Assembly (NCBI RefSeq): GCF_006345805.1 | Contig: NW_021825760.1 | Coordinates: forward strand, 1 to 14,527 | Reading direction: 5' to 3' | Length of the DNA: 14,527 nt | Origin: Octopus sinensis | Taxonomy: Eukaryota | Part shown: positions 4,712 to 11,451 of the stretch, piece by piece | Numbering within the stretch: the stretch's first letter is position 1 | How the letters are laid out: every line of letters begins with the position of its first letter | Notes under the pieces: generated by a model | What the model was told of the DNA's origin: nothing | The model's database searches: none | What the model saw: the letters and a program-made list of their open reading frames with translations, nothing else | Position numbers and translations under genes: made by a program

Positions 4712-4853
4712 AATATATATATATGTTATAATATATATATATATTATATATATATACCATATGCAAATATACGTTTATACATGCATAGATGGTTACATAC
4801 ATGCATATACGCATATACACAGACATACGTGTATTATATATATATATATATAT
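4712..4853. repeat. degenerate (TA)n microsatellite
   Basis: Directly visible. Confidence 0.9.
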
Positions 4854-4895
4854 AATTTCAACAATTGAGGTTCCCAAATCCGATTCAAGGAATTC

Positions 4896-4947
4896 TGAGC
4901 TGAAGAAAGAAATGTCGAATTGACTAATCTAGAAACGTACGTTCTCA
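4896..4947 (+). ncRNA. candidate minimal type I hammerhead ribozyme (Penelope/retrozyme type)
   Basis: The sequence reads TGAG-CTGAAGA-[stem II region]-GAAAC-GTAC-GTT-CTCA. The CUGANGA and GAAA core motifs are intact, stem I is TGAG/CTCA, stem III is the palindrome AACGTACGTT, and the NUH site is GUU. Stem II is imperfect, with an A-A closing mismatch. Confidence 0.65.
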
Positions 4948-5041
4948 AATAACCTTTGCACTTGATTTTTTAATGTTTTTTCCCCCATACTTTTGTGAGT
5001 TAGTTTAGACAAACACTATCTGAGAGAGATCTTCTTTAAGT

Positions 5042-5084
5042 ATTAGAAATAGCTGAAGAAATTTCTTTAGCTGCTATTTCTAAT
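5042..5084. repeat. 43-bp imperfect palindrome
   Basis: ATTAGAAATAGC (5042-5053) and GCTATTTCTAAT (5073-5084) are perfect 12-bp arms enclosing TGAAGAAA/TTTCTTTA. Confidence 0.85.
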
Positions 5085-5183
5085 GAGTTCAGTATGTGGC
5101 AAAGTAATTTATTTTACTAAGCCCTTTTATATAATGTTATATATATATATATATATATATATAGTACATACATACATATATAT

Positions 5184-5401
5184 GACAATTAATTGGTTTT
5201 CATAATAAAACTCCGAGTTTCGGATGCCGGGGCTGAAGTCTGCTTCGGCATCTCGTTTGTCTCAATAACTAATGAAATGCCGAAGCAAACTTCAGCCCCG
5301 TCATCCGAGTTTTATTATGACAACATTGTCACTTATTATATTTATAGATAAATTCCTCTGTCTTACATAGTATCGAGGTCTCATTCATTCTTTCGTTGTC
5401 A
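5184..5401. mobile_element. short Penelope-like terminal-repeat relic containing a foldback (5184-5330) of two degenerate hammerhead motifs, bounded by (TA)n
   Basis: Arms 5200-5260 and 5268-5320 are reverse complements apart from an 8-nt indel and about 5 mismatches. GACAAT/ATTGTC closes the outer ends. The inverted repeat is certain; the Penelope assignment is inferred from the hammerhead architecture. Confidence 0.6.
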
Positions 5402-10795: not shown

Positions 10796-11030
10796 GGCGG
10801 GGCGAGCTGGCAGAAACGTTAGCACGCCGGGCGAAATGCTTAGCGACATTTCGTATGCCGTTACGTTCTGAGTTCAAATTCCGCCGAGGTCGACTTTGCC
10901 TTTCATCCTTTCGGGGTCGATAAATTAAGTACCAGTTACGCACTGGGGTCGATGTAATCGACTTAACCCCTTTGTCTGTCCTTGTTTGTCCCCTCTGTGT
11001 TTAGCCCCTTGTGGGCAGTAAAAGAAATAA
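10796..11030 (+). mobile_element. tRNA-derived SINE, family A, full-length copy
   Basis: GGCGAGCTGGCAGAAACGTTAG head, B-box GTTCAAATT at 10872-10880, and the same tail as 461-691. Confidence 0.92.
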
Positions 11031-11224
11031 GAAACGTTAGCACACCGGACAAAATACTTAGCGGCATTTTGTCCGTCCTTACGTTCAGTGTTCAAATACT
11101 GCCTGGGTCGACTTTGCAATTCATCCTTTCAGGGTCGACAAAATAAGTACCAGTTGAGTATTAGGGGTCGATGTAATCTAGTCTTCCAGTAGAATTGCTG
11201 GCCTTGTGTCAAAATTTGAAACGA
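11030..11224 (+). mobile_element. SINE family A, older copy lacking the first ~15 nt, with a second tail type
   Basis: AGAAACGTTAGCAC..GTTCAAAT..GGTCGACTTTGC..TCATCCTTTC..AAGTACCAGTTG..GGGGTCGATGTAATC, followed by the tail GGCCTTGTGTCAAAATTTGAAAC. Confidence 0.85.
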
Positions 11225-11248: not shown

Positions 11249-11451
11249 CTGCCAGAAACGTTTGCATGCCGGGCGAAATTCTTAGTGGTGTTTCGTCTGT
11301 CTTTACGTTCTTAGTTCAAATTCCGCCGAGATCGACTTTGCCTATCATCCTTTCGGGGTCGATAAATTAAGTACCAGTTGCGTACTGGGGTCGATCTACA
11401 GGACTGGCCCCCACCCCAAAAATTTCGGGCCTTGTGCCGAGAGTAGAAAAG
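11249..11451 (+). mobile_element. SINE family A, copy with a third tail type
   Basis: Same head and core as the copies above. The tail is GACTGGCCCCCACCCCAAAAATTTCGGGCCTTGTGCCGAGAGTAGAAAAG. Confidence 0.88.

Follow-up and report, generated by a model that had tools for sequence, protein, structure and literature searches.

An extended type I hammerhead in a young, protein-free tandem element of Octopus sinensis, likely a non-LTR retrozyme copied by a Penelope-type enzyme

The locus and its hammerhead motif

The window analysed here is a stretch of 14,527 nt of the Octopus sinensis genome (GCF_006345805.1, contig NW_021825760.1), and the feature of interest within it is a truncated insertion of 292 bp that lies in a (TA)n tract and carries a single, unmutated hammerhead (Table 1). 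Its two arms measure 20 nt and 273 nt. A numbered read-out found every motif where a preliminary description of this DNA had placed it, with TGAG at 4896-99, CTGAAGA at 4900-06 and GAAAC at 4932-36. The letters of stem II run A 4907, AGA 4908-10, AAT, GTC 4914-16, GAATT, GAC 4922-24, TAA, TCT 4928-30 and A 4931, and the 3' part continues with GTAC 4937-40, GTT 4941-43, CTCA 4944-47 and AATAA 4948-52. The cleavage site that the same description put after 4943 agrees with the predicted one. Its palindromic stem III of 10 bp holds only in part: the palindrome AACGTACGTT is present at 4934-4943, but 4934 is A14 and 4943 is the cleavage nucleotide, so the helix of the active fold is limited to the inner 8 nt (4935-4942). 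Stem I resumes beyond an internal loop, where 4887-90 pairs with 4953-56, and the whole motif spans about 4887-4956.

Table 1. Coordinates of the hammerhead, of the insertion that carries it and of a Penelope-like family of the same genome
Feature	Position	Strand	Basis
Extended stem I, 5' strand: distal helix 4887-90, loop 4891-95, proximal TGAG 4896-99	4887-4899	+	RNAalifold, 17 relatives
Catalytic box C3-U4-G5-A6-N7-G8-A9 (CTGAAGA)	4900-4906	+	sequence; subfamilies: N7 = A, U or C
Stem II: A·A at 10.1/11.1, 3 bp, 3x3 loop AAU/UAA, 3-4 bp hairpin	4907-4931	+	
G12-A13-A14-A15.1-C15.2, palindromic loop GTAC, G16.2-U16.1-U17; predicted cut after 4943	4932-4943	+	sequence
Extended stem I, 3' strand: CTCA, loop strand AATAA, distal strand CCTT	4944-4956	+	
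(TA)n target, left remnant	4836-4853	.	sequence; other insertions with printed flanks have the same flank type
Short inverted arm: 20 nt, unit 293 to 274, abutting (TA)n	4851-4870	-	blastn, 20/20 identical
Long arm: unit 484-557 + 1-199, ends in (TA)n	4870-5142	+	100% over 74 nt, 98.5% over 199 nt
(TA)n target, right remnant	5138-5163	.	sequence
Young Penelope-like family	L226:1641-6460 (G000:C1:207474140-207478959); L227, L228, L233, L234		

The elements CUGANGA, GAAA and NUH stand in order with stems I-III and an open stem I, as in type I hammerheads; at 10.1-11.1, where these have a Watson-Crick pair, usually G-C, the window has A·A. Could such an arrangement arise by chance? A loose core pattern matches the window twice against 0.36 expected, and 9 of 200 shuffles do as well, which is weak when taken alone. 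The full type I descriptor requires a 4-bp stem I directly at the core, a stem II of 3 bp, a stem III of 2 bp and UH; its sole window match is at 4900, and it matches 2 of 1000 dinucleotide-shuffled windows. An Rfam scan of the motif region at E 10 returned six matches and no hammerhead, two relatives scanned likewise gave none, and no hammerhead stands among the 150 of 256 matches listed for the whole window at E 10, which are mostly microsatellite-driven noise of the microRNA type. Folding of the isolated motif is no better than that of shuffles (z about +1.1), and energy alone yields no hammerhead. Because Rfam is silent and single-sequence folding uninformative, the case for a hammerhead rests on comparison. 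Judged by its sequence, the motif is a genuine type I hammerhead that is predicted to self-cleave, and its assignment to the Penelope/retrozyme kind in the preliminary description is borne out.

A young family of tandem units

A search of the window's own genome (2.7 Gb) with positions 4855-5135 gave 1695 candidates. Forty other matches are listed; 39 of them are 99% identical, and for many the spacing is about 557 nt. At the loci, units of 543-560 nt (557 nt in the monomer) follow one another head to tail in arrays, with 34% GC, a longest ORF of 62 aa and one type I hammerhead per unit, the window copy itself being a partial unit. Genome-wide, a pattern that joins core and palindrome is matched 3568 times, and its reversed control twice. 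The hammerhead reading had earlier been made to depend on the existence of further copies; these number in the thousands, with a conserved core and compensatory changes in the stems.

Also earlier, the A-A mismatch and the GUU triplet had been taken as signs of decay in a copy that was weak or dead. This does not stand, since the 50-mer of the window hammerhead has 344 exact copies genome-wide, so that A·A and GUU are the state in which the element spread and not damage to one copy. As far as the sequences tell, both the GUU triplet and the A·A that closes stem II are characteristic of the family. If the window copy is a dead end, as is probable, the cause lies in its truncation, which has left it with one hammerhead only.

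In sister subfamilies, which are 82-97% alike, stem II begins at 10.1/11.1 with U·U, G·U or C·A. With no constraint on the core in the pattern, CUGANGA is present in 80 of 100 listed matches and U4C in 14; 2 have other single changes and 4 are unrelated; GAAAC, when it is left free, recurs in 99 of 100 listed matches. Because the copies are young, core conservation by itself does not show selection. In one subfamily U4C is present in every unit, with 428 pattern matches and the same two-arm insertions (L061-L064, L239, L240), and the spread of this subfamily implies that full catalysis may not be needed. The family as a whole has the properties of a retrozyme: its tandem units are non-coding, a few hundred nt long and below 50% GC, each with one type I hammerhead, and its copies are dispersed, recently mobile and without LTR architecture. 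Contigs of three presumed-RNA runs and of one run of unclear kind cover parts of the unit, and give no strand, ends or level.

An extended fold with two internal loops

Seventeen hand-picked representatives, filtered for an intact core and related to one another, were placed in a structural alignment (A1). Position N7 varies among them (A, U or C), as does H17 (U or A); at 10.1/11.1 they have A·A, U·U, G·U, C·A or U-A, and this position is unpaired in 14 of the 17 rows. In the stems 92.4% of cells are paired, compared with 30-47% in slid controls. Double changes are present in 4 of 14 pairs, a count that 60 of 500 shuffles reach or exceed and that is thus not significant; the covariation score, which 3 of 500 shuffles reach, is the only measure that clearly beats the shuffle control. 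Pairs 28-75, 33-70 and 34-69 of the alignment, all in stem II, show double changes. The search for compensatory changes among copies that the preliminary description had proposed did find them, and support for covariation of the stems is modest. RNAalifold, run on the 17 relatives, recovers stems Ia, Ib, IIa and IIb unprompted, together with a distal helix that lies past a 5x5 internal loop of stem I and has double changes of its own. Another of its proposals, in which the core pairs with the stem III strand, would be inactive.

An older family, B, was retrieved by its tail and not by its core, and is 67% identical over the unit. Its 31 aligned hammerhead regions include 23 with an intact core and 8 with differing private core changes, and the majority letter is canonical at each core position. 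Between the families the tail region is the most conserved (80%), and the hammerhead region stands at 72%. Family B has an extra hairpin inserted at the tip of stem II, for which reason the docking partner of loop I is likely to be the 3x3 internal loop of stem II. A covariance model built from the alignment detects repeat families that are unrelated and whose stems differ, yet which share the two loops. One of these, at L228:7612-7717, has canonical G-C and GUC and is without blastn similarity to seven monomers (E 0.01); the unrelated repeat at L226 has A-U, and that at L228:6522-6635 again has A·A. The AAUAA strand of the stem I loop recurs in unrelated families.

These comparisons describe a design that, as predicted from sequence, is an extended and not a minimal type I hammerhead, with internal loops in both stem I and stem II. 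The earlier label "minimal" fails on both stems, and the published min-HHR consensus, with G10.1-C11.1, is not followed. Three features depart from the fast consensus: the unpaired 10.1/11.1, U17 and the 2-bp stem III.

Cleavage as a dimer, which had been suggested on account of the palindrome, is made plausible by predicted energies. For a natural tandem pair the double hammerhead folds at -167.2 kcal/mol, two monomer folds at -155.1 kcal/mol and the free fold at -170.9 kcal/mol; the double hammerhead is thus 12 kcal/mol more stable than two monomers, yet 3.7 kcal/mol above the free fold. In these models the dimer would be favoured over the monomer and neither would be dominant. The active fold of the monomer is not its minimum-energy fold (-5.3 vs -6.5). 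When seven natural monomers are folded as circles they do better than their shuffles, and the hammerhead strand does so to a greater degree in 7/7, as measured by a rough z from 12 shuffles each.

Two further TA-inserted families were seen among the loci. At L228:6770-7860 and L234 there is a two-armed non-coding element with a unit of about 570 nt and a canonical-core extended hammerhead, and at L107, L108, L110 and L118 there is a family whose 3' tail is similar and whose hammerhead is degenerate and differs in sequence.

Insertion architecture

Retrozymes are a known class of element, and the proposal that Penelope-like enzymes mobilise them has drawn mostly on co-occurrence and terminal similarity. 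The octopus family offers a large set of young insertions whose ends display the Penelope footprint directly. Most loci consist of two arms that diverge from an inversion point. Seventy of 75 outer ends fall at two positions, 37 of them at unit 286-295 and 33 at 192-206, with 5 elsewhere; the count takes ends away from locus edges, a few being still near edges, and one end belongs to the older family. As a rule the two fixed ends are divided between the two arms, and the flanks, where printed, are (TA)n. The long arm in the window ends at the second fixed end (about 192-199) and crosses the predicted cut site once. Inner ends are scattered, with 1 of 80 within 6 nt of the predicted cut where about 1.7 are expected, and one further case beyond this set; about four of the inner ends, close to unit position 100, reflect an internal hairpin and are artefacts.

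The shortest arm measures 20 nt and the longest about 37 units, and arms run through the predicted cut site. A single insertion of 21.7 kb (G000:C13:24071073-24092821) consists of an arm of ~37 units, an inversion and an arm of two units, and 24 unit pieces compared from the ~37-unit array show 0.08% substitutions. Within an insertion the lineage markers agree in 240 of 251 cells in the youngest subfamily and in 1088 of 1146 in older subfamilies, and 6 of the 11 non-uniform cells in the youngest lie at the target junction. The insertions have an inverted 5'-truncated arm, a one-sided tail and a microsatellite target, which together are the marks of a non-autonomous Penelope-like element. Array-private variants are too few to distinguish a circle from a multimer template, and a search with the right flank of the window insertion found no allelic empty site.

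A candidate helper element

A young Penelope-like family in the same genome has an intact 781-aa frame with RT and GIY-YIG, an upstream overlapping frame of 479 aa, (TA)n at its ends, and copies that are 98-99% identical. We take its Cys-rich linker to be of the Neptune type. The family is a candidate helper. The 3' end of this one intact family has no significant similarity to the unit, as 138 of 300 shuffles did as well, and the partner search scored 150 of 5029 candidates. A simple pattern detected no canonical hammerhead in its 3' region. The hammerhead beside the intact element at L226 was considered as the element's own and rejected in favour of a neighbouring repeat, because the other full 3' ends of the family lie about 550 nt before that hammerhead. 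A broken RT/EN beside L013 was likewise considered as a helper and rejected; it is of an old family (10918 candidates, best other copy 77% identical), with no Pfam match and no protein homologue.

Relation to known hammerhead elements

On sequence criteria the element would be classed as a metazoan non-LTR retrozyme with a variant fold, and not as a min-HHR. With metazoan non-LTR retrozymes, as portrayed in parts of two studies (PMC7229834; bioRxiv 10.64898/2026.07.22.740005), it shares low-GC non-coding tandem units, one type I hammerhead per unit, a self-paired predicted circle and co-occurrence with Penelope-like elements. The unit of 557 nt compares with 150-450 nt in PMC7229834 and lies within the 51-972 nt of the survey in bioRxiv 10.64898/2026.07.22.740005. 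Unlike the retrozymes of those accounts, the octopus element has a stem II internal loop and a 4-bp proximal stem I, its family has A·A, U·U, G·U or C·A at 10.1/11.1, and its insertions are two-armed, in (TA)n and with two fixed ends, whereas target-site duplications are mentioned for metazoan retrozymes. The axolotl HHR_Amex2 is described with a 2-bp stem III closed by a tetraloop and with U·U at the base of stem II, and as weak in the monomer and efficiently cleaved as a dimer (PMC7229834); of nine Xenopus retrozyme dimers, only one is reported to have cleaved in vitro (bioRxiv 10.64898/2026.07.22.740005). No natural parallel to A·A at 10.1/11.1, unlike U·U, was found in the portions of the hammerhead literature covered. 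The main text of the two metazoan retrozyme papers (PMC7229834; bioRxiv 10.64898/2026.07.22.740005) mentions no cephalopod, and the titles and abstract openings of the papers listed described no octopus hammerhead or cephalopod retrozyme; figures, supplements or RepBase may hold the family or the fold.

The min-HHRs of Penelope-like pseudo-LTRs, in the description given by sections of PMC4209133, share with the octopus motif a 4-bp stem I at the core, a palindromic stem III region, an H17 that is often U and a predicted dimer mode. Their consensus has an extra base after A9 and then G10.1-C11.1 directly before GAAA, an uninterrupted stem II of 7-8 bp and an ill-defined loop 1. The octopus motif does not follow this pattern of CUGANGAH-G...C-GAAA with a long uninterrupted stem II: its stem II is interrupted and without G10.1-C11.1, its stem I has a conserved loop and a distal helix, and no RT/EN frame is attached to it. 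GUU itself occurs in mollusc Penelope min-HHRs (PMC4209133).

With the EN+ Penelope-like elements Neptune, Hydra and Naiad, as far as portions of PMC8557442 describe them, the insertions share 5' truncation, partial tandems, an inverted 5'-truncated copy, a tail at one end only and a bias to (TA)n. Unlike those elements, the octopus element has no protein and its whole units repeat many times, and its tail offset is ~94-100 nt, compared with 30-40 nt (PMC8557442).

A proposed life cycle and its rivals

The window hammerhead thus appears to belong to a young, protein-free tandem element of 557 nt that is likely to be a non-LTR retrozyme, copied in trans by a Penelope-type RT/endonuclease. A tandem array would be transcribed, and neighbouring hammerheads are predicted to pair through the ACGUACGU palindrome and to cut after GUU, giving unit-length RNA. 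The unit would be ligated into a circle, in which a lone hammerhead should be slow. The GIY-YIG endonuclease would cut a (TA)n tract, and the two DNA ends may prime at two fixed, TA-rich sites of the unit about 94-100 nt apart, where the ends of insertions are observed. Reverse transcription would then circle the unit, by rolling-circle copying, in some cases for less than one turn and in others for up to about 37, and the two cDNAs would be joined head to head, as in the architecture observed. The window insertion would be one very short product of such copying. A linear cut monomer is excluded as the template because the arms cross the cut site. This read-through fits uncleaved multimers as well as circles; the template is probably a circle.

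Could the hammerhead be dispensable to all this? The same element and the same type of helper would serve if the template were a long uncleaved multimeric transcript, with the hammerhead a slow or vestigial passenger from a pseudo-LTR. That the arms pass the cut site with no excess of ends there fits this reading, as do the weak features of the core and the spread of the U4C subfamily, and min-HHRs are described as poor at cleavage in vitro (PMC4209133). However, the core, the freedom of N7 and both loops are kept across the 67%-alike family and unrelated ones, folding is biased to the hammerhead strand, activity is reported to persist in U4C and U10.1-U11.1 variants (PMC3088659), and the very long homogeneous arms require either a circle or equally long parents. 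An uncleaved template with a passenger hammerhead is, on this balance, unlikely.

The repeat could also be no more than a stub, or pseudo-LTR: it would belong to an autonomous Penelope-like element, and 5' truncation would usually remove the coding part. Penelope-like insertions are indeed described as mostly truncated, tandem and inverted, and Xenopus retrozymes as resembling pseudo-LTRs (bioRxiv 10.64898/2026.07.22.740005). Arrays of up to ~37 whole units without coding DNA between them, and a unit without an ORF over 62 aa, argue the other way, and in 42 loci surrounding GIY-YIG matches the unit occurs, among the matches listed, only as short separate pieces; with 150 of 5029 candidates scored for a partner, the stub is very improbable. 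A satellite or MITE-like repeat spread at the DNA level, with a chance or fossil hammerhead, would fit the silence of Rfam and the long homogeneous arrays that unequal crossing over can yield, but is scarcely credible beside the structural covariation and is disfavoured by the insertion footprint, namely dispersal over many contigs, asymmetric fixed ends, random inner truncation and inversion.

Within the retrozyme reading a more specific version may be offered, tentatively and as something that could well prove wrong. The element would be an extended subtype in which the AAUAA loop of stem I docks on the UAA loop of stem II so firmly that the core can be detuned on purpose (A·A/U·U/C·A, GUU, even U4C), so that cutting would take place only in tandem transcripts and the unit circle would survive; in that case a Penelope-type enzyme would have reverse-transcribed the circle from two primers for up to ~37 turns, and the thousands of young insertions would be the record of this rolling-circle copying. 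The retrozyme reading describes no new kind of system, and in it the window copy is a truncated by-product. The natural core variants (A·A, U·U, G·U and C·A; GUU and GUA; U4C) have each spread, and therefore the role of the hammerhead in these elements can be tested with natural sequences. The two-loop architecture, missed by Rfam, supplies a model that finds further families.

Other repeats in the window

Positions 2015-2065 hold two CTGATGA boxes on opposite strands that point apart, with GAAAC following the minus-strand box; the full type I descriptor is not satisfied there, and the segment is perhaps a decayed two-armed piece of another minimal-hammerhead repeat. Just after the insertion, at 5180-5400, lies a MITE-like foldback repeat with long inverted arms (~5196-5324), which is a separate and older family with 1861 candidates and an identity of 73-87% in the best other copies. 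A common short interspersed repeat is found at 468-689, 10801-11022, 11030-11166 and 11249-11405, in opposite orientations and with copies 77-92% alike.
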